Shown piece after piece: positions 4,333-64,000 of a stretch of 64,000 bases of DNA; positions within the stretch are counted from its first letter, which is position 1; each line of letters starts with the position of its first letter. The notes under the pieces were generated by a model that worked only from the letters and a program-made list of their open reading frames with translations, did not search any database and had not been told where the DNA came from. A program made the translations under genes and the position numbers. The DNA lies in contig JAJXTI010000001.1 in assembly GCA_021783915.1 (NCBI GenBank), forward strand, positions 1,540 to 65,539, written 5' to 3'. Origin of the DNA: a bacterium. GTDB taxonomy: Bacteria; Omnitrophota; Gorgyraeia; Zapsychrales; Fredricksoniimonadaceae.

Positions 4333-4461
4333 ATTTAAAGCCTCCCTGTCCCCGCATTAAATATCTTAAAAATCGTTTATGCCTTTTTCACTATTGGCAA
4401 ACATTATACTTTGCTATAAAATGAGAATCAATTAAAACAAATCACAATCCCCATAAATATA

Positions 4462-5580: not shown

Positions 5581-5661
5581 TCTTTTTCTTCCCTTAAACA
5601 GCCCTTAAAATTCCCTAAGTAGCCCTATCTCTCCCCAATATCCGTTCCACTATCAAACGCC

Positions 5662-5853
5662 ATGCTACCCTATTTTTGTATGGCGAAATATCCTAAAGAA
5701 TACCTTGAAAAAACAATCCGCCTCTGGCAACCGTACAGCCCAGAGCCATTGACCCTTGAAGACGCCCAGGAAATAGCGGACAACGTCATCGGCCTTTATT
5801 CTTATTTAATCGAACTCAAACAAAAACATGACCAAAAAGAACCGAACCTATAA
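5662..5853 (+). CDS. hypothetical small protein
   Basis: 63-aa ORF between island genes. No motifs. Confidence 0.25.
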   Translation: MLPYFCMAKYPKEYLEKTIRLWQPYSPEPLTLEDAQEIADNVIGLYSYLIELKQKHDQKEPNL

Positions 5854-6355
5854 CACAAAATATATTAAGGCACGGGACACCTACACGGTAAAGGAACTCG
5901 CTGAAGCAATGCCTGTTCATCCAAGAACGGTTCAAGCCTGGAGAAAGCAAGGTCTGTCGCCAGTGGCCGAGGACATGGGCTATCTTCTATTTTTAGGATT
6001 GGAGATTATTCGATTTTTAAAAGTTAAGCGTCAAAAACATAAGCATCCTCTTACCCCAGGGGAATTTTATTGTGTTACCTGCCGACAGCCGAGACACGGG
6101 CAGGCAGACAGCGTCTCCATTGTCCTTACAGGGAAGCCTCTTGGAAAATCTGCTAAACAAGCCTTCATTCGAGGCATTTGTGAAACTTGTGGCCGCCCGC
6201 TCCTGCTGTTTTCCTCTGACCTAAAAATAAGAAAAATGATAGATGGCGGATTGCTGTCCAAAGAACATCAAGCGGTATTATTGGGGGCTGATGATGGCTC
6301 CGTAAACACTGACATTAGGGGAGGTCAAAATAATGAAACTCAATTTAAAAAATGA
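5828..6355 (+). CDS. HTH (excisionase/MerR-like) DNA-binding protein with CxxC...CxxC zinc ribbon
   Basis: YTVKELAEAMPVHPRTVQAWRKQGL is a helix-turn-helix of the excisionase HTH_17 type. It has CVTC...CETCG and sits immediately upstream of the tyrosine integrase. Confidence 0.5.
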   Translation: MTKKNRTYNTKYIKARDTYTVKELAEAMPVHPRTVQAWRKQGLSPVAEDMGYLLFLGLEIIRFLKVKRQKHKHPLTPGEFYCVTCRQPRHGQADSVSIVLTGKPLGKSAKQAFIRGICETCGRPLLLFSSDLKIRKMIDGGLLSKEHQAVLLGADDGSVNTDIRGGQNNETQFKK

Positions 6356-7391: not shown

Positions 7392-7413
7392 CAACAGTAT
7401 AAAACGCTATATT

Positions 7414-7638
7414 ATGCAAAGAAAGGAACAAATCATGCCAGACCTCATCCGTCGACTCGATACCTACCGTCTGGAAAATAGAATTTCCCAGGAAGAACTT
7501 GCCCAACGGCTGAAAGTCGCTTTTTCGACAGTCAACCGCTGGCTCAACGGAAAATCGAAGCCAAACAAAATCCAAAGTTACCACATTGAAAAACTTGTAA
7601 AAACCGCCGCCAGGAGATCAAACAATGGCAACGCTTGA
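7414..7638 (+). CDS. XRE-family HTH regulator, candidate R-M controller (C-protein-like)
   Basis: 74 aa; ISQEELAQRLKVAFSTVNRWLNG is an XRE HTH. It overlaps the start of the downstream mod gene by 14 nt. Confidence 0.55.
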   Translation: MQRKEQIMPDLIRRLDTYRLENRISQEELAQRLKVAFSTVNRWLNGKSKPNKIQSYHIEKLVKTAARRSNNGNA

Positions 7639-13325: not shown

Positions 13326-13350
13326 GCTAAAAGCTTAGCAACGGTTCTTA
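13306..13350 (-). terminator. imperfect hairpin followed by T-run on the minus strand, downstream of the gltX-lipoprotein operon
   Basis: aaccgccattaagct-aaa-agcttagcaacggtt; the minus-strand reading is followed by TTTTTTGTTTTAC. Confidence 0.4.
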
Positions 13351-13367
13351 AAAAGTCAATACTTGCT

Positions 13368-13559
13368 TTACCACAAATTTCTTTTGATCCAACCATCAAC
13401 GCTGGCCAGCGCGCTGTCCGATGACGCCGTCTGACTGGATTGTGTTTTGGATATTGAAAACTCACTCTTGTCATTAACTGTTTGATCAACGGCATACTTG
13501 GCTGTTTCACAGCCGGTCAATGTTAGAACGGTTACGGCTAATATCAGCGCTTTCTTCAT
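13368..13559 (-). CDS. small lipoprotein
   Basis: MKKALILAVTVLTLTGC is a lipobox signal peptide. Confidence 0.55.
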   Translation of the reverse strand: MKKALILAVTVLTLTGCETAKYAVDQTVNDKSEFSISKTQSSQTASSDSALASVDGWIKRNLW

Positions 13560-42686: not shown

Positions 42687-43130
42687 TTATTTTAATAATT
42701 CTCTTTTTTTAAACCATAAGGACACTTCCCGGCTGGCCTGCGGGCCATCGCTTGAAACATGCACGATGTTTTCAAACAGGCCTTGGGTGGTGATGCGTCC
42801 GAATTTACCTCGTACGCTTTTGGGGGAGGCCTCTTCGGGGTTGGTGGCGCCGGCAATGTCACGGCATTTCTTGACAGCCGATGGCCCTTGGAAAACCATG
42901 GCCACGACTGGCGAGCCTTCATGGAATTTTCCTGTTAAATAATCAACAATCTGGTTATAAAAAGATTTATCTTTTAACTGAATGTAATGTTTCCTGGCCA
43001 AGGATTTCGTCGGTTTGACTAACTTAAGACCCGCTAATTTCAAATCGCTGTTGATAAACGGCCTTAACACATCCCCAACGATTGCTTTATGCAGGCCCTC
43101 AGGCTTGATCAATACCAATGCTTGTTCCAT
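42687..43130 (-). CDS. ndk: nucleoside diphosphate kinase
   Basis: LVLIKPEG...NIVHVSSDGP (NxxHxSD active-site His). Confidence 0.8.
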   Translation of the reverse strand: MEQALVLIKPEGLHKAIVGDVLRPFINSDLKLAGLKLVKPTKSLARKHYIQLKDKSFYNQIVDYLTGKFHEGSPVVAMVFQGPSAVKKCRDIAGATNPEEASPKSVRGKFGRITTQGLFENIVHVSSDGPQASREVSLWFKKRELLK

Positions 43131-43151
43131 AAATTATTTTAATGTCCTCCG

Positions 43152-44087
43152 CTACCGGCCCGACGAATTGTCTTTGCGAATGACTGCTAGTACCCTGTCT
43201 AAGTCATCCAACGAGTAATATTCCACAATGAGCTTGCCCTTGCCTTTTTTGTCCTCGACGGTGACCTTGGTCCCAAGGATTTTCCGCAGTTCATCCTCAA
43301 GATTGGCAATATCAGGGTCCTTGGCCCTTTGTGCCTTGGTCTTCTTGGGCTTTTTGCCTGAAGTCTGTTTGGTCAACCCTTCGACGGAACGCACGGACAA
43401 ATTTTGATTGATGATGTCTTGCACCATCTTGCGTTTTTGATCCACATCACTAACGGCCAATAGCGCACGCGCATGCCCCATCGTGAGCCTTCCATCGATA
43501 AGATAATCCTGTATGTCCGACGGCAGAGTCAACAAACGCAACATATTAGAGATCGTCGAACGGTCTTTGCCCACGGCCTGGGCCACCTGATCCTGGGTCA
43601 GCTTAAAACCCTGTATCAAGGTATCAAACGCGCTGGCCTCCTCAATGGGGTTAAGATCCTGGCGCTGGATATTTTCCACCAAGGCCAACAGCAAACAATC
43701 GGCATCAGAGACATTCTTGATCACAGCAGGAACGCTCTCAAGTCCCAAGGCGCGAGCGGCGCTAAGGCGACGCTGGCCGGCAACCACCTGGAACCGACCT
43801 TCCTTTTGACGCACAAGAATAGGCTGCAAAATTCCCTTGTCTTTAATGGAAATTTTAAGTTCTTCAAGGGCGGCCGGATCATAATTGACCCTTGGTTGAC
43901 AAGGGTTATTGTCAATCAAATCGGTCCTTATCGTAGCGACTTCTTGTTGAGATATATTTTGGGGATCCATTCCCTGCTCTTTCTGACGCGATTGGCTCAT
44001 CTGTTCCAAGGCGGTCTCCATCCTGGCCTTATCCGTTGCCGAGGAAATAAGCGCTGAGAGTCCTTTGCCTAAAGCTTTATTGTCCAT
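43152..44087 (-). CDS. parB: chromosome partitioning protein ParB
   Basis: GLGKGLSALI N-terminus and ParB box LVENIQR. Confidence 0.85.
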   Translation of the reverse strand: MDNKALGKGLSALISSATDKARMETALEQMSQSRQKEQGMDPQNISQQEVATIRTDLIDNNPCQPRVNYDPAALEELKISIKDKGILQPILVRQKEGRFQVVAGQRRLSAARALGLESVPAVIKNVSDADCLLLALVENIQRQDLNPIEEASAFDTLIQGFKLTQDQVAQAVGKDRSTISNMLRLLTLPSDIQDYLIDGRLTMGHARALLAVSDVDQKRKMVQDIINQNLSVRSVEGLTKQTSGKKPKKTKAQRAKDPDIANLEDELRKILGTKVTVEDKKGKGKLIVEYYSLDDLDRVLAVIRKDNSSGR

Positions 44088-44160
44088 GTCCTTCCCCTCC
44101 TTCTAAAGGTTCTCTTCTGACCTATGGTTCAGTTTTTATAAATACATAACTTATTTATTA

Positions 44161-44940
44161 TCAACTATTTACAATATTTAACTTGCCATTTAATATTTCT
44201 TGCCCCATCTCTTTATATTTAACTGCCCCTATAGAAGCTTGGTCATAAACATGAATAGGTTTACCGAAACTTGGAGCTTCGCTAAGCCTGACATTACGAG
44301 GAATGATCGTATTATAAACTTTATCTTTAAAAAAATTTTTTATTTCCCCTATGACTTCATTAGTCAAATTCGTACGAAAATCTGCCATTGTCATAAGAAC
44401 CCCTTCAATAGCTAAGTTTGGATTTAATCCATCCTTAACAAGGTTAATAGTATTGAGTAAGCCACTCACACCTTCCAGGGCATAGAATTCGCATTGGATG
44501 GGAATAATAATAGAGTCTGCCGCAACCAAAATATTTAAAGTTAACAATCCTAAAGATGGCGGCGAATCAATAAATATAAAATCATAATTGGATTTAATAC
44601 TGTCTATGGATTTTTTAAGTCTTGTTTCTCGGGACAACACTCCAACAAGCTCTATCTCTGCTCCGGTGAGATTAATATTACAAGGAAGTAAATTTAGATT
44701 TTTATAAACAGTGGGGATGATAACATCTGTAATACAGGACTTATGGATTAGGACATCGTAAACAGAAGCTTTTATTTCGTTCTTATTGACCCCTACCCCG
44801 CTTGTAGCATTGCCTTGTGGATCCATGTCCACCAATAAAATTTTTTTACCTGAATCGGCTAAGACTGCTGAAAGATTAACTGCTGTAGTAGTTTTTCCTG
44901 TACCACCTTTTTGATTACAGATAGCAATAGTTTTAGGCAT
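44161..44940 (-). CDS. parA: chromosome partitioning ATPase ParA/Soj
   Basis: IAICNQKGGTGKTTTAVNLS deviant Walker A. Confidence 0.85.
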   Translation of the reverse strand: MPKTIAICNQKGGTGKTTTAVNLSAVLADSGKKILLVDMDPQGNATSGVGVNKNEIKASVYDVLIHKSCITDVIIPTVYKNLNLLPCNINLTGAEIELVGVLSRETRLKKSIDSIKSNYDFIFIDSPPSLGLLTLNILVAADSIIIPIQCEFYALEGVSGLLNTINLVKDGLNPNLAIEGVLMTMADFRTNLTNEVIGEIKNFFKDKVYNTIIPRNVRLSEAPSFGKPIHVYDQASIGAVKYKEMGQEILNGKLNIVNS

Positions 44941-44978
44941 GATCTTCTCCGGTGTTTCACGTGAAACATGACTATGGT

Positions 44979-45176
44979 CTATTTTTTGATAACCTTAATC
45001 TTTGCTTGTTTGGCTCCCTTCATTCCAAAAAGCCCCTTCTTCTCTTCACAAACAATCTTAATATCCATCTGTTCTCTATCTATTCCAAGCGTTTTTTCAG
45101 CTTTTTTTATAGCTTCTTCTGTAGTATCTGCTTCAAATTCAGATTCTATATTGCCATTATCATTATTAAAATACAT
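44979..45176 (-). CDS. Jag/KhpB N-terminal domain only (65 aa)
   Basis: EFEADTTEEAIKKAEKTLGIDREQMDIKIV matches Jag_N. KH and R3H domains are absent. Sits between yidC and parA. Confidence 0.5.
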   Translation of the reverse strand: MYFNNDNGNIESEFEADTTEEAIKKAEKTLGIDREQMDIKIVCEEKKGLFGMKGAKQAKIKVIKK

Positions 45177-45205
45177 AAATCCACCGCCTGTTTCACGTGA
45201 AACAC

Positions 45206-46804
45206 CTATCGACTTTTAGCCATTTTCCACTGGGTCCAAGTAGATAAAGCATAAAAAACTGTAAAATAAAGAGATTGTCCACTTGCAAAATGATAAAAGA
45301 TAAATCCGATGAAAAACGGGAAAAAATATCTCATCATCTTCTGCTGCATAGCTTGAGACTCATCGGTAACAACCATGTTTTTAGCTGAAATTTTTTGCTG
45401 TAAAAACATTACGGCCCCCATAGCTATAGGTAATATATTAATCTCATTCCCTATAAAAGGCAAGTATTTAGGCAAAAGAATTAATCTGTCTGGTTGGGTC
45501 AAATCTTTAATCCATAGGAATCCTTTGCCTTGAAAATAATAGGCACGCCAAAGAATCTGGTAAAGAGCCATAAAAATTGGCATTTGCAATAGAAAAGGTA
45601 AGCATCCCCCTAAAGGATTAACTCCCTCCCTTTTGTATAATTCAACCATTTCAGCATTAAGTTTTTGTGGATTATCTTTATATTTCTGTTGCAACGCTGC
45701 CACTTTAGGTTGTACAGATTGCATTTTTTTCATCGATCCCATGCTCTTAACAGTGAGAGGATATGTAATACCATAAATTAAAAGGCTTACTAATATTATA
45801 GAAAGCCCCCAGTTACGGCAAATACTATGTATGGCTGGTATGGTATAATAAACGGCTTTGGCAAAGATATCAATAATCCACCAGCCGCTAAAAGCTACGA
45901 TTTTTTCAAATCCTTCTTTATAGGTTTTAAGCCAGATTATATTTTGATCTCCAGCTACTACGGTAAAATTGTAATTAACTGTTTGCCCAGGTTCAATGGT
46001 TTGCGTTTTTGGTTGAACATTAACATTCAGTTGACTATTACTAACCACATCATTTTCATAGCCTTTTGTTTCAAATTTAGGCTTTATAATGACAGCATGA
46101 TAATGATCTCGAAAACCTATCCAATCAAATTCACTATTATTAGGAGCATTATTTATTTTATTATCTTTAGAATTAAATTTATAAGCTCCACCTTTACGAA
46201 ACACATGATTTTTTTCCAGAATGGAAAGTTCATACAACATTGCATTTCTAGTATTTTTAGTATCAACAGTACTTCCGTTTATACTTAAACCTCTAATATA
46301 TATATTTTCCAGTCTGGAAGTTTTGCTTAAATTTTTAATATTAACATCAACATTTAGGGTGTTTTTGTCTTTAATTTTAAAATATTTTGTTATTTCCCAT
46401 TCTTTTGTTGTATAAACGTAGGTTGCACTATCTTTATTTTGATCAACTAAAACGAAGGGCACTTTCTCAAATCCTTTAATTAGAAACATGTTTTCTATAG
46501 GAAGCGGTTCCTCTGAACCCGATATGTCTAATTTGTGGAGAGATCCACCCACATTTGATAATTCTATATCCATATTAGTGGTTTGTAATTTTATTTCTTT
46601 TTCTTTAAAACTTTGATTTGTGGTTTTTGTTTGCTCAATAGGTGTGACTGTGGTCGGATTTGTTGATTTTTCTATATCTTCATTTTTTTGAATGAGTTGC
46701 GCTTGTTTTATCATTTGTGCTCTCTTAGGAAGCACAAAAATACTCTGATAAAGAGATAAAACTAGCATTGATACCGCAAGAGCTAAAATAAGATTTCTAT
46801 CCAT
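45206..46804 (-). CDS. yidC: membrane protein insertase YidC
   Basis: Large periplasmic domain then the conserved 5-TM core (GCLPFLLQMPIFMALY). Confidence 0.85.
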   Translation of the reverse strand: MDRNLILALAVSMLVLSLYQSIFVLPKRAQMIKQAQLIQKNEDIEKSTNPTTVTPIEQTKTTNQSFKEKEIKLQTTNMDIELSNVGGSLHKLDISGSEEPLPIENMFLIKGFEKVPFVLVDQNKDSATYVYTTKEWEITKYFKIKDKNTLNVDVNIKNLSKTSRLENIYIRGLSINGSTVDTKNTRNAMLYELSILEKNHVFRKGGAYKFNSKDNKINNAPNNSEFDWIGFRDHYHAVIIKPKFETKGYENDVVSNSQLNVNVQPKTQTIEPGQTVNYNFTVVAGDQNIIWLKTYKEGFEKIVAFSGWWIIDIFAKAVYYTIPAIHSICRNWGLSIILVSLLIYGITYPLTVKSMGSMKKMQSVQPKVAALQQKYKDNPQKLNAEMVELYKREGVNPLGGCLPFLLQMPIFMALYQILWRAYYFQGKGFLWIKDLTQPDRLILLPKYLPFIGNEINILPIAMGAVMFLQQKISAKNMVVTDESQAMQQKMMRYFFPFFIGFIFYHFASGQSLYFTVFYALSTWTQWKMAKSR

Positions 46805-46806
46805 AA

Positions 46807-47016
46807 TTATTTTACCGGATCGTATCCGCCTTTAGATAGGGGAGAGCAGCGTAAGATGCGCCAGGCGCCCATAAACAGGCCTTTAAAAGCCCCATGTCTG
46901 CGTATGGCCTCGACTGTGTACTGCGAGCACGTCGGATAAAACCGACAAGCATTAATGCCAAAAGGCCGACTTAACCTTTGATAAGCTTTTACGGCAAACA
47001 ATAACAGTCTGTCCAT
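46807..47016 (-). CDS. yidD: membrane protein insertion efficiency factor YidD
   Basis: AVKAYQRLSRPFGINACRFYPTCSQY. Confidence 0.8.
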   Translation of the reverse strand: MDRLLLFAVKAYQRLSRPFGINACRFYPTCSQYTVEAIRRHGAFKGLFMGAWRILRCSPLSKGGYDPVK

Positions 47017-47057
47017 GGGAAAGCAACCTTAGACGAGAGCCTCGTCCTTGACCTTAT

Positions 47058-47195
47058 TTATGGAATTAGCTGGTGACGGCCTTTGGCTCGACGGCGGGCT
47101 AAGACCTTGCGTCCGTCTTTGGTGGCCATGCGCTTTCTAAATCCGTGCTTCCTGACCCCGACAATGTTCGTTGGTGTTTTCAAATGCTTTTTCAT
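47058..47195 (-). CDS. rpmH: ribosomal protein L34
   Basis: Hand-translated [45 protein letters not shown]. Not in the ORF track because it is under 60 aa. Confidence 0.8.
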
Positions 47196-47380
47196 AATGG
47201 GGCAAATTATAACACAGGCAATTGTCGCGTCAAGCTTTTTACAATAAAGACAAAACCCCTTAGACGAAGAGGGGTTAAGTTTTTACTCAAATTCCGTCGT
47301 GAAAAAAACCGTTGCAATGGAAGAACGCTTTGTTATAATGACCAGCTACTAAAGCCTGCCTGACGGCAGGCAAGCTGGTT

Positions 47381-47401
47381 TTATCCACAGCTGTGAATAA
47401 C
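47381..47401. promoter_or_regulatory. inverted pair of DnaA boxes upstream of dnaA (TTATCCACA-gct-TGTGAATAA)
   Basis: Perfect consensus TTATCCACA and its near-complement separated by 3 nt. Confidence 0.75.
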
Positions 47402-47423
47402 TTGTGTACGAATCTCGTCGAAA

Positions 47424-48761
47424 ATGACACTGACCGACCTCTGGCAAAAAACCCAAAGTACCCTCAAAGAACAAATAGGATCCACCAGCTATGACACCTG
47501 GCTTTCCAGTCTCAGGGCCATCGACAAAGACACCGGTACCCTGGTTCTTCAGGCGCCTGATGAGTTCTTTAAGAACTGGATCATCGAGCATTATGCCCCT
47601 GCCATTGAACGCTGTCTTAACGCCGAGGCGGGTAGGGAAGTGGATCTGGAATTCGAGGTCAACGGCCAACTCATGGCCGTCCCTCCACAAAAACTGCTGC
47701 AGTCTTTTGAAAAACAATTTGACCAAACCACCCCTAAAACCACCGTCCATTTGAATCCGCGTTTCCTTTTTGAAAATTTTGTCGTTGGGCCTTCGAACCG
47801 CTTTGCTTTCGCCGCGGCCCAGGCCGTTGCCGAGGCGCCGGCCAAAATGTATAATCCTTTTTTTATCTATGGCCCAGTCGGTCTTGGAAAAACACATTTG
47901 ATGCAGTCCATCACCCATGAAGTTGCCCGTAAACATCCAGCACTTAAAGTTTGCTATCTTTCTTCGGAACAATTTACCAATGAACTGATTAACGCTATCC
48001 GCCACCGTTCGGCAGACAGTTTTCGTCAAAAGTACCGCACCATTGATGTGCTTCTCATCGATGACATTCATTTCATCGCCGGGAAAGAAAGCACCCAGGA
48101 AGAGTTTTTCCATACCTTTAACGTGCTGCACGACAACCGCAAACAAATTATCATCTGTTCCGACAGGCCGCCCAAGGAAATCGCTCATTTGGAAGAACGC
48201 CTGGTCTCGCGTTTTAATTGGGGGTTGATCGCCGATGTTCAACCGCCGGACTATGAAACCCGCGTGGCCATTTTGCGTAAAAAGCTTGAGCTGGAATCCG
48301 TAAAAGTGCCCGATGATGTATTAATTTTTATTGCCAGTGAAATAAAAACCAATATCCGGGAACTGGAAGGAGCGCTGCTCCGCGTGGTGGCCTATTCAAT
48401 GCTGGAAGAAAAACCCGTCAACCTTTCCATTGCCAAGTCCGTTCTTAAAGATATGGTCAAGGAAACGGTCAAAACAATCAGCGTTGATATGGTGCAAAAA
48501 GAGGTGGCAGGATTTTTTAATATTTCCTTAAATGACCTTAAAAACAAATCTCGGCATAAAAATGTGGTGGTGCCCAGACAAGTAGCTATGTATTTATCGC
48601 GTAAATTAACAACGCATTCTTTGCCGGAAATCGGGGCTGCTTTTGGAGGTAAAGACCATACTACAATTTTACATGCAGTAAAAAAAGTTGAAGAAATTCT
48701 TTTAAAAGACGAACAAATAAGGAAAATAGTAGATACATTAACAAATAGTCTGTTAGTGTAG
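47424..48761 (+). CDS. dnaA: chromosomal replication initiator DnaA
   Basis: AAA+ Walker A GPVGLGKTHL and DnaA signature C-terminal HTH (VAMYLSRKLT). Confidence 0.95.
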   Translation: MTLTDLWQKTQSTLKEQIGSTSYDTWLSSLRAIDKDTGTLVLQAPDEFFKNWIIEHYAPAIERCLNAEAGREVDLEFEVNGQLMAVPPQKLLQSFEKQFDQTTPKTTVHLNPRFLFENFVVGPSNRFAFAAAQAVAEAPAKMYNPFFIYGPVGLGKTHLMQSITHEVARKHPALKVCYLSSEQFTNELINAIRHRSADSFRQKYRTIDVLLIDDIHFIAGKESTQEEFFHTFNVLHDNRKQIIICSDRPPKEIAHLEERLVSRFNWGLIADVQPPDYETRVAILRKKLELESVKVPDDVLIFIASEIKTNIRELEGALLRVVAYSMLEEKPVNLSIAKSVLKDMVKETVKTISVDMVQKEVAGFFNISLNDLKNKSRHKNVVVPRQVAMYLSRKLTTHSLPEIGAAFGGKDHTTILHAVKKVEEILLKDEQIRKIVDTLTNSLLV

Positions 48762-48763
48762 CT

Positions 48764-48925
48764 GTGAATAGCTTTTAGAAGTTACCCTCAAGTTATCCAC
48801 AGCTGTGAATATTGTAAAGCCTTGAAAAAAATAAAGTTTTGAGCCTTATTCAATTTATCCACAGGGCTTACTAATATTACTACTAATTGTAAAACGTTAA
48901 CCATTTAGTTAAATTAGCTAAGGGT
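48764..48925. promoter_or_regulatory. oriC candidate: four DnaA boxes plus an AT-rich unwinding element in the dnaA-dnaN spacer
   Basis: tgtgaatag (48764), ttatccacagctgtgaata (48793-48811, a repeat of the upstream 19-mer), ttatccaca (48856), then an AT-rich stretch 48866-48925. Confidence 0.7.
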
Positions 48926-48931
48926 GTGATT

Positions 48932-50020
48932 ATGAAAATTAAAGTGAATAAAGAGGAATTATTGAGAGTTATAGGTGTTGTGGGCAATATAGTTTCTACA
49001 CGGGCCACCTTACCTATATTATCCAATATGATGCTGGAGGCCAAAGATGATATTTTAAAGCTTAACACAACGGATTTGGATATCGGTATATCCTGTGAAT
49101 TGCCTGTGTATATATATGAACAAGGAGCGATTACGGTCCCAGCTAAAAAATTTTCAGACATTATCCGTGAACTCCCTTTAGGGGAAGTTGTTTTATATGT
49201 AAGAAAAAATAATCAGGTGGAGATTGAAGGGACCAATTGCCGTTTTAAACTTAACGGGCTTCCTAAAGAAGAATTTCCGAAGTTTCCGGAATTTAAAGAT
49301 AAAGATGTAGTTTTAATTAAACAAAATAATTTAAAAGAAATGATTCGTTTGACAAACTTTGCGGTGTCTTTCGAAGAGTCGCGGTATGTTCTTAATGGTA
49401 TTTTACTGGAAGTTTCAGGAGACATGGTTCGTATGGTGGCCACCGATGGCAGGCGTTTGGCAAAAATGGAAAAAAAGCTTGTTCAGTCCAGCCACAAAGA
49501 ATTAAGTATTATTATCCCTATTAAAGCCATTAGTGAAATCAACCGTAACCTTAAAGACACAGGGGAGTGTTCTATTATTTACGGCACAAACCAGGTCTTG
49601 TTTAACATCGACGGTGTTTTAATTGCCACTCGCATTATTGAAGGGGAATTTCCCAATTATAAACAAGTCATTCCTAAAGAGATTTTTACCAAAGCCAAGG
49701 TCAAAACACAAGATCTCTTGGCAGCGATCCGTCGCGCGAATCTTTTATCCACCCCGGATTTTCAGGCGATCAAATTTGAATTATTCAAAGACAAAATGGT
49801 CATTTCCAAATCTACCCCTGATGTGGGCGAATCCAGGGAAGAAGTGGACATTGAATACGGCCAGCAGGAACTAATGGTTGGCTTTAACCCGCAGTTTTTT
49901 ATCGATGTCCTTAAAAATTTAAGTGATGAAAAAATAGATCTGGAATTTTTAGGGCCGGATAAGCCCTGCGTGCTACGTTTAAGAGATTATCTTTATTTAG
50001 CATTACCGATGAGGTTGTAA
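48932..50020 (+). CDS. dnaN: DNA polymerase III beta sliding clamp
   Basis: Three-domain clamp. Start taken at MKIKVNKEELL; the ORF-track start is 6 nt upstream. Confidence 0.9.
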   Translation: MKIKVNKEELLRVIGVVGNIVSTRATLPILSNMMLEAKDDILKLNTTDLDIGISCELPVYIYEQGAITVPAKKFSDIIRELPLGEVVLYVRKNNQVEIEGTNCRFKLNGLPKEEFPKFPEFKDKDVVLIKQNNLKEMIRLTNFAVSFEESRYVLNGILLEVSGDMVRMVATDGRRLAKMEKKLVQSSHKELSIIIPIKAISEINRNLKDTGECSIIYGTNQVLFNIDGVLIATRIIEGEFPNYKQVIPKEIFTKAKVKTQDLLAAIRRANLLSTPDFQAIKFELFKDKMVISKSTPDVGESREEVDIEYGQQELMVGFNPQFFIDVLKNLSDEKIDLEFLGPDKPCVLRLRDYLYLALPMRL

Positions 50021-50024
50021 ACAG

Positions 50025-52741
<2,717 letters not shown>

Positions 52742-52812
52742 CCCTCCCCTCCCCCGGAGCTGGAAATTTTCTAACCCCGGGGGTTATGAAGGTATGGAAA
52801 GGTCTATGTTTT

Positions 52813-55266
52813 ATGCGTGACGCGAATAAAAAAGAAAAAATAATTCCTGTATACATTGAAGATGAGATGAAGAATTCTTATCTTTCCTATTCCATGTCCG
52901 TCATCGTCGGACGCGCTTTGCCGGATGTGCGTGACGGGCTAAAACCCGTGCACCGGCGCATTCTGTACGCGATGAAAGAACTAAACCTAGAGCACAACAA
53001 ACCTTATAAGAAAAGCGCCCGTATTGTCGGTGAAGTTTTGGGCAAGTACCATCCCCATGGCGACACGGCCGTCTACGATACCATGGTGCGCATGGTGCAG
53101 GACTTTTCCCTGCGCTACCCCTTGATTGATGGGCAGGGCAACTTCGGTTCCATCGATGGAGACGCTGCGGCGGCGATGCGCTATACGGAGGCACGCATGG
53201 CTTCCGTGGCCCAGATCATGCTCGACGACATTGAAAAAGAGACTGTTGAATTTTCCCCTAATTTCGACGGGTCTTTGACAGAGCCGGACATCCTGCCGGC
53301 TCTGGTGCCCAATTTACTGGTCAACGGTTCATCGGGGATCGCTGTTGGCATGGCCACCAACATGCCCCCGCAAAATTTAGGGGAAGTAGTCGAGGGGATC
53401 ATGTACCTGTTAGACTCCCCGGACGCGTCCATCAAGGACCTGATGAAGCTTGTCAAGGGGCCTGATTTTCCAACGGGAGGGATCATCTGCGGCAGAGAGG
53501 GGATCGTGGACGCTTACAATACAGGACGGGGCAAGATCATTATCCGTGCCCGTGCTTTAATTGAACAACAAAAGGCAAACAGGGAAGCCATTATCATCAC
53601 CGAGGTTCCCTACCAGGTCAATAAGGCCAATTTGATTTCAACGATCGCGGACCTTGTGCAAAACAAACAAATTGACGGAATCACAGATATTCGCGATGAA
53701 TCAGACAAAGACGGCATTCGTGTGGTCATTGAGCTTAGGCGCGACGTGGACCCCAATATTGTCTTGAACTACCTCTTTAAACACACGCAAATGGAGGTGA
53801 CCTTTGGCATCATCAATTTGGCCCTGGTCAACAAATCCCCCCGGGTATTGACCCTTAAGCAGTTGATGCAGCAGTATATCGATCACAGGCGTCATGTGAT
53901 TCGCCGCCGCACACAGTTTGATCTGGACAAAGCTCTTCGACGGGCCCATATTTTAGAAGGACTTAAGATCGCCTTTAAGTTTTTGGATGAGATCATCAAA
54001 ACTATCCGCGCTTCCAAAACGACCGCCGAGGCCAAGGAAGCTCTGATTAAAAAATTCGAACTTTCCGACGCGCAAGCCCAGGCCATTCTGGAAATGCAGT
54101 TGCAGCGTCTAGCGGCCCTTGAAAGAGACAAAATTGAAGCGGAATACCAGCAGCTTTTAAAAGACATTGACAATCTCCGTGCGATTTTGGCCTCCGAGAA
54201 AAAAGTTGACGGTATTATTAAAGAAGAGTTGGAGGGGTTGAAAAAGAAATACGCTGATGAGCGTCGCACGGAAATCGCTGCTAAGGCGGAGGACATTGAA
54301 ATCGAAGACATGATTGCCGAGGAGGACATGGCGATCACTATCAGCAACAAGGGATATATCAAGCGTTTGTCTGTCGATGCGTATCGTTCACAAAGGCGCG
54401 GCGGCAAAGGCGTGACCGCCATGACCACTTCCGAGGAGGACTTTGTTGAGAGGTTGTTTGTGGCGTCCTCAAAAGATTATTTGCTCATCTTCTCTAACCA
54501 GGGAACGGTGCGCTGGCTTAAAGTCTATGAAATTCCCGTGGCCTCAAAGACGGCCAAAGGCAAGGCCATCGTGAACCTTCTTTCTTTTAAACCCGGCGAA
54601 GGAATCAGCGCTATCGTGGCCGTTAAGGAATTCAGGGAAGATGAATTCTTGGTCTTTGCCACGAAGCAGGGTTTGGTCAAAAAGACAAAGGTCTCTGCCT
54701 ATAGCAACCCGCGCAAAGGAGGTATCGTCGGAATCGGTTTGGAAAAAGGCGACGAGCTCATCGGTGTCGCTTTGAGCAATGGGAAAGAAGAGGTTCTTTT
54801 GGCGACCCATGAAGGGATTGCGTTGCGTTTTCCCGAAAAATTATTGCGCGATATGGGACGCTCCGCCAAGGGAGTGAGGGGCATTAAACTAAGCAAAGGT
54901 GATTATCTGGTCGCCATGCTCGTTTTCGCTCCGGACGTGGATAAGACGGGAGCAAAACTATTGACGGTCTGCGAGTTGGGCTACGCAAAGCGTTCGGACT
55001 TTGCCGATTACAGGACCCAATCCAGGGGGGGCAAGGGCATCATCAACGTCAAGGTGACCGAGAAAAACGGCCGTGTTGTCGGTGTTTTGACCGTCATGGA
55101 TGACGACCAGATTATGGCCGTTACCAAAAAGGGGATGGTGGTGAGATCTTCCCCTTCGGAAATTCGGGAGACCGGCCGTTCCGCCATCGGTGTGCGGTTG
55201 ATTTCTTTGGAAAGCGGAGACCAGGTCTCCTCGGTTGCCCACGCTTTTTCCCGTGAGGAGGAATAA
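52813..55266 (+). CDS. gyrA: DNA gyrase subunit A
   Basis: Active-site region with AAMRYTE and HPHGD motifs, C-terminal beta-pinwheel repeats. Confidence 0.95.
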
Positions 55267-55342
55267 ATAAACCCGCAGGTTTGGAAAAATCTTGACGACC
55301 CTAAAGAGGCCGCTATAATAGGCACTCTTGTTTGGTTCTTTT

Positions 55343-58034: not shown

Positions 58035-58943
58035 GTGGGCATCCTGGCCGGAGGTTTGACTGGTTGCGATCTGTTCTCTCCTGCCAAAAAGACGGAAAAA
58101 ACTTCTTCCGCAGAAGTTACAACCAACACGGCCGCCAACACAGTATCGGAGACGGCCAATGAAAACGCCAGTGACCAAGGGCCCCTGCCCCCTGATGTCG
58201 TTGCCCGCGTGGGCAGCTGGACATTGACAACAGACGACTTTAACCAAAAGCTTAAACTTTTTAAACAGGTGCAGCCGAATTTCAATGACAAAGACCCAAA
58301 GGTCGAAGCTTCTGTTGTGGATGAATTAATCCGCCAGCAGTTGTTAGTCCAAGACGCACAAAATTCTGACATCGGAGACCAAAAAGACATCAAAGCTGCC
58401 GTGGAGGATTTTCGCCGTTCGTTGTTGATGCAAGCATTGGCCAACCGTATCACCAAAGGAGTGGTCGCAACCGAAGCAGACGCGTTAAAATATTATGACG
58501 AGAATAAAAATATTTTTGTAAAATGGAAAGTCCGTCAAATCGTTGTCGCGGATGAAACCACCGCCAAGAACCTGTTGGTCCAAGTTTTACAAGGAGGAGA
58601 TTTTGCCGCTTTGGCCAAGGAACAATCCATAGATAAAACTGCCAAGCAAGGCGGCCTGATAGCGGACCCTAATAAGGCCCCCGTTGAGGTGCAAAAAGCC
58701 ATCGCTCCTTTAGACTCTGGGGGAACGAGCGCAGTATTCAAAGGCAAGGAAGGGTACTATTTAGTCCATGTTGATGAAAAAAACCCGGTCCCTTTTACAG
58801 AAGTCAAAGCGGAATTGGTTTCGGCGTTGACGGTCCGCAAGCAACAAAACGCTATATTAGAGTACATTAACAAATTGGCCCAGAAAACCAAGGTGGAAAT
58901 AAATAAAGAGCTCTTAGGGCTTAGCGATAATAAGCAGCCTTAA
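58035..58943 (+). CDS. parvulin-type peptidyl-prolyl isomerase lipoprotein (SurA/PrsA-like)
   Basis: LTGC lipobox, SurA-like N-domain and PpiC domain (GGLIADPNK...GYYLVHV). GTG start; exact start uncertain. Confidence 0.7.
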   Translation: MGILAGGLTGCDLFSPAKKTEKTSSAEVTTNTAANTVSETANENASDQGPLPPDVVARVGSWTLTTDDFNQKLKLFKQVQPNFNDKDPKVEASVVDELIRQQLLVQDAQNSDIGDQKDIKAAVEDFRRSLLMQALANRITKGVVATEADALKYYDENKNIFVKWKVRQIVVADETTAKNLLVQVLQGGDFAALAKEQSIDKTAKQGGLIADPNKAPVEVQKAIAPLDSGGTSAVFKGKEGYYLVHVDEKNPVPFTEVKAELVSALTVRKQQNAILEYINKLAQKTKVEINKELLGLSDNKQP

Positions 58944-58960: not shown

Positions 58961-59803
58961 ATGGCTATGGACAACAGAAGACAAATTGTTTTAATCGCTA
59001 TTGCCGTCGTTGCTGGGATTGGTGCGACGGTGCTGACCAGTCAGTATGTCACCAATAAAATCGATGAAAAGACCACAGAGCTTCATGATCAATATATGGC
59101 CCAGCAAAAAGAAGCGACAGAAAAATTGCAACTGCAAAGTCAACAGCAAATGGCGACCTTAGAAAATGAAATAAACCAGGTGCGTCAAGAGCAGCAGCAA
59201 GCTTTACAACAGGCCACTGCCGCCATGCGCGCCCAGCAGCAAGCTATGCAACAGGCGACAAAAGTAAAAAGAAGCAGCGTCCTGTTGACCGAAAAAACGC
59301 CTCCCGGCAAACGCGCAGTGACGGTCATGATTGATTCGTTGGCCGCAGTAGGGGGGTTATTAAACGCAGGTGATTTTGTGGACGTTATCGCCCACTTAAA
59401 CGTACCTCAAGAAAATGACGCGGCAGGAAAGACAAAGACGATAACGGCCATGGTTTTTCAAGATTTACAGGTGTTGGCCATTAACACTAATTTAGATAGC
59501 CCCGGGGAGTATGACGAACAACAGTCCGCTCCATCTTTAAAGATAACTTTTGCCGTGGATCCGCAGGAAGCGGGACTTTTGGCTTTTGCCGATAAAAACG
59601 GCAAATTGGAATTGGCCCTGAGGGCTCCCAACGAAAATGAAAAACAAATGGTCAAAACCTCAACGTGGAAAACGTTAGCAGACTATGTATTACAAAACCA
59701 AGGGGCTTCCCTTGATGTTCCTAATGAAGAAGGAGCACCAAAGGTGCAAGAGCCTGAACAAAAGCCTTACATTCAAATCTTTCGTGGAGGCAAGGAGCTT
59801 TAA
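58961..59803 (+). CDS. cpaB: Flp/Tad pilus assembly protein CpaB
   Basis: N-terminal TM, Gln-rich linker, SAF/CpaB C-domain. Confidence 0.7.
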   Translation: MAMDNRRQIVLIAIAVVAGIGATVLTSQYVTNKIDEKTTELHDQYMAQQKEATEKLQLQSQQQMATLENEINQVRQEQQQALQQATAAMRAQQQAMQQATKVKRSSVLLTEKTPPGKRAVTVMIDSLAAVGGLLNAGDFVDVIAHLNVPQENDAAGKTKTITAMVFQDLQVLAINTNLDSPGEYDEQQSAPSLKITFAVDPQEAGLLAFADKNGKLELALRAPNENEKQMVKTSTWKTLADYVLQNQGASLDVPNEEGAPKVQEPEQKPYIQIFRGGKEL

Positions 59804-59806
59804 TTC

Positions 59807-61651
59807 ATGAGAATATTTTTATCTAGAAGTTTGAGCATATTGCTGGTAACTGCTTTTGTGTTTTCCAACATGGTTCCTTTAGCGGCACTGGCCCAAGAAC
59901 AGGGCCTTGACCAAAATATGCCCCAAAAGGAAGAGCCACCGTTAAACCCGCAAGGAGGCCCTGCTAAGCCCGCGGAGTTAATTAACCTGTTGGTCGGAGA
60001 TGTCCAGAAGATTGAAACCAAGAACCTGACTAGGGTCGCCGTTACCGATCCTGCCATTGTAGATATTTCAGATGTAAAACCAGGAGGAATCTTTGTTGTC
60101 GGCAAAAGACCAGGACAGACGCAGGTCTTTGTTTGGGATGACGGCGGCAAACGCGGCATTACCATCCGCGTTGCCATTGAAGACCTGGACATGCTTAAAA
60201 CCAGGATCCAGGAAGTCATTGACAGGGCGCAGATAAAAGGGGTCTCTTTAGACAAAGATGTTTACGAAGGCAAGCTTGTTTTGTCCGGAGCGATCACAAA
60301 AGAGGACAAAGACACCTTGGACAAGATCATGGAACCTTTCAGCGACAGGATCATCAACTTGGTCAAAAAAAAGGTGATTGAAGATTTGGTGGAAATAGAC
60401 ATGCAGATCATGGAGATTAATGTAACGTTTGAAAAGAACCTTGGCATAGATTGGAGCAACGCCTTCACCGCCGCTTCTTCTGGAAACAACGGGACCACCG
60501 GCGCCAATCTTTTGCAGCCAAGCTATCAAGAAACGCTCCCCAGCCTTAACGGCAAGCCGGAAGACTTCTTTAAGATTGGCAAATTTTACCGGACCACACC
60601 CCTTCAGGCGAACGTCAACGCTTTAATCAACGAAGGGAAGGCAAGGATCCTTTCTAAACCCAGACTGTTAGTTCTTAACGGCAAGGAAGCGAGCTTCCTG
60701 GTCGGTGGTGAAATCCCGATCCAAAACACCACGACCTCTTCCAGCAGCACAACCACCCAAACAAGCACGACATTTAAGCAGTACGGGGTCAATGTGGTCG
60801 TTACTCCAACAATAAGGGAAGGCAAAATTGATATTTTGCTGAACGTTCAAATCAGCGATATTGATCCTTCAACCCCTATAACCAGCGGGGACGTGGCTTA
60901 CGTGACTCGCCAGGCGCAAACGGAACTGTTTTTGGATAATATGCAGACGGTCGTGTTGGCGGGGTTGATAAAGCATAATGATTCGAATACCGTAAAGAGA
61001 GTGGCCTTTTTAGGCAACATTCCTGTCATCGGGGCTTTGTTTAGGAATCGAGACAAAGGGCCCAATAAGGACACAGAAGTTGTGATTACCTTGACCCCTA
61101 TAATTTTAAAATCCAAAAAGCTTGCCACGGACCAGGTGGTCATGCCCTCCAAGCGTCTGAACAGGCTTAAAAATGAAGTGGAAAGTAATTTTGATAAAGA
61201 ACCATTGAGCGCCCTTACCAATCCCAAACAAGAACTCCTCAAGAGCCCCCTTAAGAGTGTTGAGACAAGAACCGTTCTCAATCCAGCCATGACAACGCCA
61301 TTGGTGGATGTTCCAGACACAGCGCTATTGCCTTATGTGAGGGACATTCAATTAAGGATTTCTCAGGCCATTTCGTACCCTTATGAAGCGATACAAAAAA
61401 ATTGGGAAGGCACCGTGAAATTAAGGCTGCGCATCCTCAGGGACGGTTCTTTGGCCGATTGTGACCTGCTCGAGAGTTCCGGGCACGATATTTTTGACAG
61501 AGACGCCCTTAATACGGCAAAAATGGTGGCCCCATTCTCACCTTTCCCTGAGCAGATGCACCGGAAGGATTTGGTGGTGACAGTCCCTATTGTCTATAAC
61601 CAGCACAGCGTTTCCAGAGGCAACACGCAGACGGTAGTGGCCTCTTATTAA
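59807..61651 (+). CDS. cpaC: Tad/type II secretion-family secretin (CpaC/RcpA-like) with fused C-terminal TonB_C-like domain
   Basis: Signal peptide, pilus N-domain, secretin core (ARILSKPRLLVLNGKEASFLVGGEIP ... FLGNIPVIGALF). C-terminal YPYEAIQKNWEGTVKLRLRILRDGSLADCDLLESSGHDIFDRDALNTAKMVAPFSPFP resembles the TonB C-terminal domain. Confidence 0.75.
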   Translation: MRIFLSRSLSILLVTAFVFSNMVPLAALAQEQGLDQNMPQKEEPPLNPQGGPAKPAELINLLVGDVQKIETKNLTRVAVTDPAIVDISDVKPGGIFVVGKRPGQTQVFVWDDGGKRGITIRVAIEDLDMLKTRIQEVIDRAQIKGVSLDKDVYEGKLVLSGAITKEDKDTLDKIMEPFSDRIINLVKKKVIEDLVEIDMQIMEINVTFEKNLGIDWSNAFTAASSGNNGTTGANLLQPSYQETLPSLNGKPEDFFKIGKFYRTTPLQANVNALINEGKARILSKPRLLVLNGKEASFLVGGEIPIQNTTTSSSSTTTQTSTTFKQYGVNVVVTPTIREGKIDILLNVQISDIDPSTPITSGDVAYVTRQAQTELFLDNMQTVVLAGLIKHNDSNTVKRVAFLGNIPVIGALFRNRDKGPNKDTEVVITLTPIILKSKKLATDQVVMPSKRLNRLKNEVESNFDKEPLSALTNPKQELLKSPLKSVETRTVLNPAMTTPLVDVPDTALLPYVRDIQLRISQAISYPYEAIQKNWEGTVKLRLRILRDGSLADCDLLESSGHDIFDRDALNTAKMVAPFSPFPEQMHRKDLVVTVPIVYNQHSVSRGNTQTVVASY

Positions 61652-61653: not shown

Positions 61654-62802
61654 ATGCTCAACTATCAAAATAGTTTTCTCCCAAGGATTGTTTTCTTTTC
61701 CAGCACAGGCATTCTTTTTTTATCCTCGATGTCTTACGCGGGACTGTCCCGGGATCAGATCATGCAAAGGGAGATGGACTGCGTTAACAGACATCTTCAA
61801 GAAGGAAAAATGTCGTGGCAGGACGTTTGTTATACCGGCTCCTCTAAGGATGGCGGGAGACGACGGGTAATCAATGAGCAAATGAATCAAATAGAGGAGC
61901 AGGGGCAACAAGTTTCCGACACTCAGCGGCAACCGGCCCTGGGGGATCAAACGGGGCAAACACCTTCGGCAGAAAAACAACCAACAGAAATTTCGCAGGA
62001 AACTCCAAAGAAACGGTATTCATTGGCCCCTGCAAGAGTCCATACATTTGACATAGGGGTGGATCCTTATTATAACCGCTATAACGAACACGATACCGGT
62101 GTTTTCTTAACGGGCGCCATGGTCGGTTATTATGGGAACTATGCTTTCCGTCCTCCCAAGGGGAACGTATTGAACAATGAAATCCTTGATTTTTACAGTT
62201 TACAAGGCCACTACGCTCAAGGCAAATTAGATTATAAAGGTTCAGGGACCGACAATGGTTACCCCAATAAGATGTTTGAGGTCAGGGGGCTGGTGGGCAA
62301 GGATTTTGATTTTACTGATTCTTCACGCGTAACGGGCTATTTTGGCTATGGGTACCGTTTTTTGCAAGACAACAGCCAAGGGCAGATGACCTCAACGGGC
62401 GCCTGGGGATACCATCGCAGGTCTCATTATTTTTATATTCCTATAGGCGCCACAGCGGACATCCCCACTGGTAAAGATACTCAGGTGAGTTTGAACCTCG
62501 AATACGACTACTTTATTCAGGGATACCAAAAAAGCTGTCTGAGCGATGGCAACCACTTTACCACCCATGGGCTTAGCACAGACGTCAAAAACCATCAAGA
62601 CAATGGTTTTGGCCTGCGCGGTTCAGTGAGGTTTTTGAAACACTATCCCCAACTGGACGTGTATTTTGAACCCTTCATCCGTTTTTGGAACATCGAGGAT
62701 TCGAAAGTGGAAGACACCATAATCGACGGAAAATTTTCAAGTGGTTTGGAGCCCCACAATACAACCGTTGAGACTGGATCCAAATTTGGCGTTCAGTTTT
62801 AA
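61654..62802 (+). CDS. predicted outer-membrane beta-barrel protein
   Basis: Signal peptide, alternating aromatic/Gly-rich strands, C-terminal ...KFGVQF ending in Phe. Confidence 0.5.
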   Translation: MLNYQNSFLPRIVFFSSTGILFLSSMSYAGLSRDQIMQREMDCVNRHLQEGKMSWQDVCYTGSSKDGGRRRVINEQMNQIEEQGQQVSDTQRQPALGDQTGQTPSAEKQPTEISQETPKKRYSLAPARVHTFDIGVDPYYNRYNEHDTGVFLTGAMVGYYGNYAFRPPKGNVLNNEILDFYSLQGHYAQGKLDYKGSGTDNGYPNKMFEVRGLVGKDFDFTDSSRVTGYFGYGYRFLQDNSQGQMTSTGAWGYHRRSHYFYIPIGATADIPTGKDTQVSLNLEYDYFIQGYQKSCLSDGNHFTTHGLSTDVKNHQDNGFGLRGSVRFLKHYPQLDVYFEPFIRFWNIEDSKVEDTIIDGKFSSGLEPHNTTVETGSKFGVQF

Positions 62803-62966: not shown

Positions 62967-64000
62967 ATGTCTTGCAAAATCATAACAGTATTTAGCAATA
63001 AAGGAGGGGTGGGAAAGACCTTTGTTTCAGTCAACGTGGCTGCCGCTCTGACTCTTAAGGGCAAGAAAGTTCTGACCGTTGATTTAGATCTTCAGGCCGG
63101 ACAGAACATGGCGCGCATGTTTAATTTGACGCCTTCTTTCTCGTTGGTGGATCTCCTGGAGACTGATGAAAAAGATCAGAACATCCCCAAATATGCCACG
63201 GCCCATTCCAGCGGACTGGATTTTATCCCCGCCATCAATAACCTCGGCCAAGTGGGGCACCTCACCGCAGACAACGTGCGGCCATTTTTTAAAAAAGCGT
63301 CAACCATTTATGATTATATCATCATCGACGCAGATAAGATATTTACTGAGACCCTCATCAGTATTTTAGACAACACCAATTTAATATTGCTTGTCACGAC
63401 CCCAGACATCCTGGCTGTCTACCAGGCCAAGAACAGCCTCGACATTTTACAGGGCCTGCATTTCCCGTTAAAGATGTCAAAATTGATCTTAAACCGGGCG
63501 GAAAGCCGGGGAGGAGTGGCCTGGCAAGAAGTGCAGAGTGTTCTGTCTTGTGAAATCCTTTCCCTTGTCCCATCCGATGGAAGGACCGTGGGTCTGGCTT
63601 TAAACAGGGGGATTCCTTGCGTTATCGACAGCCCCAAGACGCGTGTCTCCGAAGTGTTTTTTGAATTGGCGGACAAACTCCAATCGGAAGAAATCTACGT
63701 ACCATCTTCCGATATCGTTAAGGTGCGCGCTGTTGATGGTGTCGTCCCCAAGGGCAACGCATTCTGGCAGAAATTTGGCATTGCTTTCGACACCTCTTCA
63801 CCGATACAGGCGTCGTATAAAAAAGAAGAAGACGATCTCATCAAATTAAAGAAGGCGATCCACCACAAACTTGTTGAGAAGATGAATTTGAAAAAAATAT
63901 CGACGGAAATTTTGACTGACGCGCAACAGTCCGCCAATATCCGAAAAGCGGCGGAAAAAGTCGTCACGGAGCTGCTCGCGGAAACTTCAGGGGCCATTAT
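62967..64000 (+). CDS. CpaE/TadZ-like MinD/ParA-family ATPase ORF that continues in frame into a CpaF/TadA-like N-terminal region; partial, runs off the window
   Basis: Hand translation in frame 0: MSCKIITVFSNKGGVGKTFVSVNVAAAL (deviant Walker A) ... no stop up to 64000. Distal part is ...SYKKEEDDLIKLKKAIHHKLVEKMNLKKISTEILTDAQQSANIRKAAEKVVTELL. Confidence 0.55.
   Translation, partial: MSCKIITVFSNKGGVGKTFVSVNVAAALTLKGKKVLTVDLDLQAGQNMARMFNLTPSFSLVDLLETDEKDQNIPKYATAHSSGLDFIPAINNLGQVGHLTADNVRPFFKKASTIYDYIIIDADKIFTETLISILDNTNLILLVTTPDILAVYQAKNSLDILQGLHFPLKMSKLILNRAESRGGVAWQEVQSVLSCEILSLVPSDGRTVGLALNRGIPCVIDSPKTRVSEVFFELADKLQSEEIYVPSSDIVKVRAVDGVVPKGNAFWQKFGIAFDTSSPIQASYKKEEDDLIKLKKAIHHKLVEKMNLKKISTEILTDAQQSANIRKAAEKVVTELLAETSGAI

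Follow-up and report, generated by a model that had tools for sequence, protein, structure and literature searches.

A Tad pilus secretin with a C-terminal TonB domain in Candidatus Omnitrophota

Secretins need to be piloted, assembled and aligned within the cell envelope, and each of the systems studied uses different accessory parts for this, such as pilotins, AMIN and LysM domains or the GspAB proteins. Here we analyse a gene at 59807..61651 on the + strand of a 64,000-nucleotide stretch of a Candidatus Omnitrophota genome (contig JAJXTI010000001.1; this whole stretch is called the window below), which encodes a secretin of the Tad/Flp type fused at its C-terminus to a TonB C-terminal domain (TonB_C).

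The closest described secretins are RcpA/CpaC of the Tad pili (structures 8odn and 8jvb/9wfd), which have in common with the Omnitrophota protein a T2SS-T3SS_pil_N (pil_N) domain, an N-domain and the Secretin barrel, and whose systems, like the Omnitrophota locus, comprise CpaB/RcpC, a TadA/CpaF ATPase, a TadZ-like ATPase and Flp-type pilins. In ordinary CpaC/RcpA proteins little follows the barrel, whereas the Omnitrophota protein has 179 extra C-terminal residues (tether, TonB_C domain and tail), and its operon, compared with RcpA-TadD systems, has a lipoprotein peptidyl-prolyl isomerase (PPIase), a TadZ-TadA fusion, a DUF192 protein and an uncharacterised cytoplasmic protein. The AMIN domains of PilQ, the LysM protein TsaP and the pairs of S-domain and pilotin likewise serve as accessory modules by which a secretin ring is fixed or piloted in the envelope, and the PilQ-TsaP structure 6ve2 is among the PDB matches of the secretin part; AMIN domains are N-terminal, however, and the S-domain is short and helix-rich, and neither is TonB_C. 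In the type II secretion system (T2SS) the TonB-like periplasmic protein GspB/ExeB contacts the secretin and, with its peptidoglycan-binding partner GspA/ExeA, is needed for assembly (PMC4098917). ExeB acts in trans, from the inner membrane, on the N0-N1 region of the T2SS secretin, whereas the Omnitrophota TonB_C domain, which scores above the Pfam threshold, lies in cis at the C-terminus of a Tad secretin without N0. In the Myxococcus gliding machine the TonB_C domains of GltG and GltJ are carried on flexible linkers and are proposed to engage TonB-box-like motifs of outer-membrane partners (bioRxiv 10.1101/2020.07.22.216333). That case resembles ours in placing a globular periplasmic TonB_C domain on a flexible linker in a non-transport machine, but GltG and GltJ are motor-associated proteins of the inner membrane while the Omnitrophota protein is an outer-membrane pore. 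The STN domain (PF07660, 'Secretin and TonB N-terminus'), shared by some secretins and TonB-dependent receptors, is a link by name only, being N-terminal, unrelated to TonB_C and absent from the Omnitrophota protein.

The open reading frame (ORF) has exact coordinates and encodes 614 amino acids plus the stop. Its domain layout was derived from profile matches, a hydropathy scan and two AlphaFold2 (AF2) models, one of the full-length protein built from a 101-sequence alignment and one of residues 480-614. A signal peptide occupies residues 1-29 (59807..59893, + strand, as for all parts of the gene) and is modelled as a hydrophobic helix at residues 3-21; residues 1-19 are the sole hydrophobic segment of the protein, and we infer that cleavage would follow ALA (...PLAALA/QEQ). 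A disordered segment (residues 24-55 in the model) leads to the pil_N domain at residues 56-122 (59972..60172; Pfam PF13629, E 4.8e-13, 49 bits against a threshold of 23), which is predicted as an all-beta domain over residues 57-123 with a predicted local distance difference test (pLDDT) score above 95. This domain is a hallmark of CpaC/RcpA-type secretins, those of type II and type III secretion having N0/STN instead. There follows an alpha/beta N-domain at residues 127-188 (60185..60370; pLDDT >90; helices 127-140 and 165-178, strands 146-151, 156-163 and 182-188), which is presumably a periplasmic ring-building domain. The initial annotation had named a secretin_N domain in this part of the protein, but neither Secretin_N nor STN was matched in Pfam at E values up to 1, and the N-terminal modules are instead pil_N and the modelled N-domain. 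The beta-barrel core spans residues 194-435 (60386..61111), modelled confidently over 194-434, with Pfam Secretin (PF00263) matching residues 272-435 at E 4.4e-39 (134.2 bits against a threshold of 27.5). In searches of the PDB, the best sequence matches of the N-terminal 440 residues are the Acidithiobacillus caldus secretin 8jvb (E 8e-30) and Pseudomonas aeruginosa RcpA 8odn (E 1.8e-25), and the best fold matches of the secretin part are 9wfd/8jvb among 40 secretin structures found by Foldseek at E <1e-9. The protein is a CpaC/RcpA-type Tad secretin, as its earlier identification had it, and the operon described below places it in a Tad/Flp-type pilus machine of Candidatus Omnitrophota.

Beyond the Secretin domain lie 179 residues rather than the roughly 100 first estimated: a linker of about 70 (residues 436-506, 61112..61324), a TonB/TolA-type domain of 93 (residues 507-599, 61325..61603) and a tail of 15 (residues 600-614, 61604..61648). 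The motifs that had been quoted for the gene are present in the translation, with FLGNIPVIGALF at residues 401-412 in the core and, from residue 524 onward, the series YPY...EGTVKLRLRILRDG...SSGHDIFDRDALNTAKMV...PFP. Residues 507-599 are a canonical TonB C-terminal domain. TonB_C (PF03544) matches residues 522-598 at E 2.6e-17 with 63.5 bits, well above the gathering score of 24.6; TonB_2 matches residues 527-584 at E 3.6e-5, the NCBIfam model TIGR01352 (tonB_Cterm) scores 56.8 bits against a cut-off of 27.1, and a phmmer search of the PDB with the tail region of the protein finds the Helicobacter pylori TonB C-terminal domain (TonB-CTD) at E 1.8e-5. Structure prediction gives a confident TonB/TolA C-terminal fold, as had been anticipated: residues 507-599 form an alpha/beta domain at pLDDT >90 in the full-length model, with disorder from residue 604, and the domain reaches pLDDT 93-98 in the separate model. 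The best fold match in the PDB by Foldseek is again the H. pylori TonB-CTD (5lw8/6sly; E 2e-6, target-normalised TM-score 0.75, root-mean-square deviation (rmsd) 2.3 Å, 31% identity), followed by TolA domain III, HasB, FusB and E. coli TonB, the last also as chains of its complexes with BtuB and FhuA. Across the TonB-CTDs of H. pylori, HasB (2m2k) and E. coli TonB (1u07/2gsk) the fold is the same (target-normalised TM-score 0.70-0.75, rmsd 1.5-2.3 Å), and these domains have in common with the Omnitrophota domain the YP motif, the SSG-x3-(L/F)D motif and a PIxY last strand.

Conservation follows the same features. In the 101 aligned sequences 11 columns of the domain are invariant (Y510, G535, V537, G547, S558, G559, D564, A567, P576, F580 and P594), and about 17 more are conserved at 90% or above, among them Y524-P525 of the YP motif and I595-V596-Y597. 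The protein itself reads SSG-x3-FD in the second motif and VPIVY in the last strand, for which the family form (V/I)PI(V/I)Y is nearly invariant.

The fusion is a conserved family hallmark and not a curiosity of one genome. PF13629, PF00263 and PF03544 are all present in each of the 120 best clusters at 90% identity, the named members of which are metagenome-assembled genomes (MAGs) of Candidatus Omnitrophota; every cluster has at least one TonB_C domain and nine have a tandem pair. In data with one genome per species, 398 stretches carrying the family patterns encode a relative; of the best 80, every one but L053, which stops at residue 414, has an alignment that extends to residue 597-614, with identities as low as 29%, so that with the window's own contig (L001) the TonB_C domain is found in 80 of 81 loci. 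An exhaustive search of 1.84 billion representatives at 50% identity returned 446 proteins at E <=1e-30. Of the top 150, 139 consist of the core plus TonB_C (11 of them with two TonB_C domains), two are fragments with TonB_C only, and nine are short proteins of 203-418 amino acids without TonB_C, most of them ending at or just after the core. The loci are almost all labelled as Omnitrophota, for example Ca. Aceula lacicola, although the title of many SPIRE MAGs is 'uncultured Planctomycetales'; three bear other labels (L034 Phycisphaerae, L039 Elusimicrobia, L059 Deltaproteobacteria), which are labels only, and their operon is identical. Examples from outside the Omnitrophota were sought among these top 150 representatives and top 80 loci, which still lie inside the fused family. 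Plasmid records served as a control; of the 978 that have a secretin match, none covers 80% or more of the query and none reaches the TonB_C domain, the CpaC/RcpA proteins of Caballeronia, Sinorhizobium, Ralstonia and Bradyrhizobium aligning only to about residues 39-465. The domain occurs in no solved secretin by sequence or Foldseek searches of the PDB. Since the extension is absent from ordinary CpaC/RcpA and from the solved secretins, it is not a generic S-domain, and here the comparison with homologues bears out the initial annotation. The fusion is the rule across the Omnitrophota and has been kept under strong selection.

The strong TonB_C match, together with the NCBI product name 'TonB family protein', could be taken to mean that the gene encodes a genuine TonB energy transducer, or that an annotation or assembly artefact has joined two genes. 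We consider either highly improbable. Where TonB has an N-terminal transmembrane anchor and an ExbB/D-binding region, the protein has a signal peptide and then 400 residues of secretin; lacking a membrane anchor, it is not a TonB energy transducer. Its score against the NF008082 TonB model is 13 bits where the cut-off is 265, and among the scanned window ORFs of at least 150 amino acids there is no TonB-dependent receptor, ExbBD or Ton/Tol gene. TonB reaches up to outer-membrane receptors from an anchor in the inner membrane, whereas the Omnitrophota domain is carried on an outer-membrane pore and would hang down from it, and as it lacks an anchor that binds ExbB/ExbD it has no direct coupling to the proton-motive force. 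Nor is the fusion the product of misassembly or a frameshift, because the same architecture recurs as a single uninterrupted ORF, with an in-frame linker that varies, in hundreds of independent assemblies.

The linker begins with a short helix (residues 449-459) and continues as a disordered tether rich in Glu, Ala, Lys and Pro. In the AF2 model its residues 437-445 and 467-501 have pLDDT values below 50 (below 40 for 467-501), and among 200 family members it ranges from 26 to 227 amino acids with a median of 55 and a composition of 11% E, 11% A, 10.5% K and 10% P, which is reminiscent of TonB's own spacer. That linker length varies while the domain stays fixed fits a tethered binding module. 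Some family members of 836-1091 amino acids (P0220, P0251, P0258 and P0263) have very long linkers, in some cases longer than 227 amino acids, and a scan of these long variants showed nothing beyond extended linkers, a second TonB_C or a TPR match below threshold; they also carry C-terminal extensions without a recognisable domain.

The tail that closes the protein (residues 600-614, ...GNTQTVVASY) is specific to a clade and resembles TonB-box sequences such as DTLVVTA and DTIVVTA. A V(I/V)A(S/A)Y-type tail, in its fuller form (Q/E)(T/K)V(V/I)A(S/A)Y, follows TonB_C in 63 of 120 close homologues, nine others having an SFLKN-type tail instead. One could therefore imagine that TonB_C binds the tail (...QTVVASY or ...EKVIASY) of its own or a neighbouring protomer, giving a latch or a head-to-tail ring beneath the pore. 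The conservation of the tail in those 63 sequences and its absence from variants with two TonB_C domains are in keeping with such self-association, but the tail is missing from a whole distant clade, whose proteins end 1-2 residues past the last strand, and so cannot explain a domain that is universal; it is also of low confidence and undocked in both AF2 models, and the nine SFLKN-type tails do not fit. Taken together, these points make self-association quite unlikely.

As to what the domain does, the reading that we favour, and hold at about even confidence, is that TonB_C serves in the periplasm as a cis-tethered docking module, which would bind a strand of a partner by beta-strand addition. 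In the established topology of secretins the C-terminus is on the periplasmic side, and the TonB_C domains would accordingly hang into the periplasm around the pilus channel; by analogy with 8odn (C13) and 8jvb (14 chains per entry) the ring would have some 13-14 subunits, and hence as many TonB_C domains around the channel. Each may capture an extended strand of a partner protein and in doing so tie the outer-membrane pore to another envelope component, which could be CpaB or the inner-membrane platform, an assembly factor such as the lipoprotein PPIase of the operon, or a pilin. Other secretin systems leave this task to factors acting in trans or to different domains, for example the TonB-like GspB/ExeB, pilotins, the AMIN domains of PilQ or TsaP. 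We propose docking because the hallmark residues of TonB_C are kept, along with the nearly invariant last strand, which aligns with the end of the TonB-CTD structures; in the TonB-BtuB and TonB-FhuA complexes it is this final strand that pairs with the TonB box. Docking is favoured as well by the strand-addition activity of the fold, by which the C-terminal domains of TonB and TolA bind their targets (PMC12204202), and by the precedent of TonB-like ExeB, which, while the secretin ExeD assembles, binds to its periplasmic domain (PMC4098917). The tandem duplication of TonB_C in some lineages is a further point in its favour.

The main rival is a peptidoglycan anchor, in which the TonB_C domains would attach to the cell wall and, as an anchor or spacer, hold the secretin ring at a set position relative to the sacculus, the work done elsewhere by the AMIN domains of PilQ, the LysM protein TsaP and the peptidoglycan-binding ExeA/GspA. 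Peptidoglycan binding by the TonB C-terminal domain has been reported for E. coli, the disordered tether, with its median of 55 residues (26-227), could span the distance between outer membrane and peptidoglycan, and other wall-binding domains were found neither in the secretin nor in the conserved operon genes scanned. Many secretin systems, moreover, need a wall-binding element, as in ExeA-ExeB-ExeD (PMC4098917). Against this, the established binding mode of the fold is protein strand addition (PMC12204202), binding of TonB_C to peptidoglycan being a minority observation made in vitro; no feature of the sequence specifically favours binding of glycan or peptide stem, and the long variants add linker or a second TonB_C but never a classical wall-binding domain. 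A wall anchor is a possible but less likely alternative to docking. Cell-wall anchoring and partner recruitment, the two ideas put forward in the initial annotation, remain the two leading hypotheses.

Several observations weigh against docking as well. No partner was found among the operon candidates examined. The secreted protein encoded next to the secretin, which resembles an outer-membrane protein (OMP), was considered and is present in only four of 81 loci; a search for a TonB-box-like motif in the N-terminal linker of the PPIase (70-sequence alignment) or in DUF192 gave no conserved short motif; and the KPxIQIFRGG strand of CpaB, as a specific ligand, was set aside, lying as it does inside the span of the generic CpaB model. 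An ordinary CpaB from Azospirillum aligns to residue 278, and the KPxIQIFRGG region is therefore not specific to the system with the fused secretin, though it may still act as a ligand. The secretin's own tail is clade-specific and undocked in the monomer models. Conservation of the last strand would be expected for fold stability alone, and a PIxY/F-type strand is seen also in the alignments of H. pylori TonB and HasB.

A bolder variant would have the ring of tethered TonB_C domains act as an 'inverted TonB', grabbing a TonB-box-like strand and transmitting force or conformational change to the gate of the secretin. The strand could come from an inner-membrane Tad component driven by a motor or ATPase, or from the C-terminal tails of neighbouring protomers. 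We think such coupling unlikely.

The gene lies within a Tad operon that the native contig extends past the end of the window, in the order lipoprotein PPIase, CpaB, secretin-TonB_C, a clade-specific OMP-like gene, TadZ-TadA ATPase, DUF192, a cytoplasmic protein of 456 amino acids, small pilin-like ORFs and a large Cys-rich pilin-like protein, an order kept in about 80 loci. The PPIase (58035..58943, + strand) is SurA/PrsA-like and a probable lipoprotein, with a Rotamase_2 match at E 9.5e-17 and a SurA_N-like part; it precedes CpaB and heads the Tad operon in 70 related loci, and the G-C of its lipobox is conserved in the alignment of these 70 sequences. It could be a dedicated chaperone or a pilotin-like factor for the secretin; a TadD-like TPR pilotin was not seen in the operon. 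The Flp-pilus assembly protein CpaB/RcpC (58961..59803, + strand; TIGR03177 at 103.8 bits against 71, Pfam RcpC at E 8.9e-25) consists of an N-terminal transmembrane segment, a Q-rich spacer and the RcpC domain, with the KPxIQIFRGG motif conserved at its C-terminus, and adjoins the secretin in every related locus in which that flank is present.

Downstream of the secretin, 61654..62802 (+ strand) encodes the clade-specific, secreted OMP-like protein of 382 amino acids, which is rich in Tyr and Gly, ends in ...GVQF and matches no Pfam or NCBIfam family; its homologues stand directly after the secretin in L001, L008, L013 and L014, which are the closest relatives. At 62967..64000 (+ strand) begins a fusion ATPase of a TadZ (ParA/MinD-like) and a TadA/CpaF part, which runs off the end of the window. 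Its open frame 62967-63998 matches Pfam AAA_31/ParA, and it continues at 4005-6120 of L001 with TadA (TIGR03819, 329 bits, below the equivalog cut-off of 373) and Pfam T2SSE (203 bits). TadZ and TadA are separate genes in classical Tad loci, whereas here they form a single ORF of about 721 amino acids in 72 of 76 loci; where the ATPase looks split, in L001, the contig has undetermined bases (Ns), seen as an XXXX stretch.

The remaining genes were read from L001. A DUF192 gene (PF02643, 6141-6482) is a conserved operon member between the ATPase and the pilins, and 6546-7916 encodes the protein of about 456 amino acids, which is conserved, apparently cytoplasmic and unannotated, with no transmembrane segment and a weakly helix-turn-helix-like N-terminus. 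Between 7947 and 12114 there are at least seven small ORFs of 101-139 amino acids, longer than classical Flp, most of which have prepilin-like G/xxxxEY N-termini; four give weak Flp or class-III-signal matches and three more have similar G/xxxxEY N-termini. The run of pilins is followed by a pilin-like protein (p411) of at least 411 amino acids with a Cys-rich region, which could be a tip or adhesin subunit. Neither the ten ORFs scanned within 8.4 kb beyond the secretin nor the upstream ORFs of the window gave a T2SSF (TadB/TadC) match, the contigs ending at the p411 gene; TadB/TadC have been reported in Omnitrophota genomes (Seymour et al. 2023, PMC10066038).

Elsewhere in the window, positions 43000-55300 hold the chromosomal origin region, with parB, parA and yidC on the - strand and dnaA, dnaN, gyrB and gyrA on the + strand; GC skew changes sign and reaches its cumulative minimum at about 46-48 kb, and the Tad operon starts only some 10 kb from dnaA. 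Between infC and thrS an ORF of 3042 amino acids without a Pfam match occupies 28770-37901 (- strand), and very large ORFs of unknown function are known in the Omnitrophota (PMC10066038; bioRxiv 10.64898/2026.06.07.730766). A probable mobile element of low GC content (0.39-0.43) lies at 4400-13400 and encodes a tyrosine integrase (6333-7391), a DNA methylase (7625-9241), a ResIII helicase/restriction subunit (9241-11766) and a large serine recombinase (11727-13325).

We found no description of a fusion of secretin and TonB_C in the literature searched on secretin, RcpA and TonB_C. Tad/RcpA in the Omnitrophota was analysed, and a role in predation or parasitism proposed, with TonB unmentioned (Seymour et al. 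2023, PMC10066038), and a 2026 preprint reports 'TonB C-terminal domain' genes beside pilus cassettes in which the secretin was not recognised. The databases differ: NCBI names the protein 'TonB family protein' and JGI 'pilus assembly protein CpaC', and precomputed annotation already shows all three Pfam domains. The supposition that this is not a described CpaC architecture accordingly holds for the literature but fails for the databases, and the fusion seems undiscussed in print though visible in database annotation. As the secretins of the Omnitrophota are named 'TonB family protein' in GenBank, they are systematically mis-annotated. Both modules are well known, and the new part is their fusion, not a new kind of machine.

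The Omnitrophota are ultra-small bacteria whose Tad pili have been proposed to serve predation or parasitism (PMC10066038). The fusion offers a testable entry to the way in which Tad secretins outside the Proteobacteria are integrated into the envelope, and it extends the use of the TonB_C fold to a setting that is anchored in the outer membrane and independent of a motor. Were the unlikely coupling through an inverted TonB true, a phylum of nanobacteria, putative predators or parasites, would have a pilus pore that is coupled mechanically, and this coupling would take the place of the pilotin and alignment subcomplexes found in other systems.

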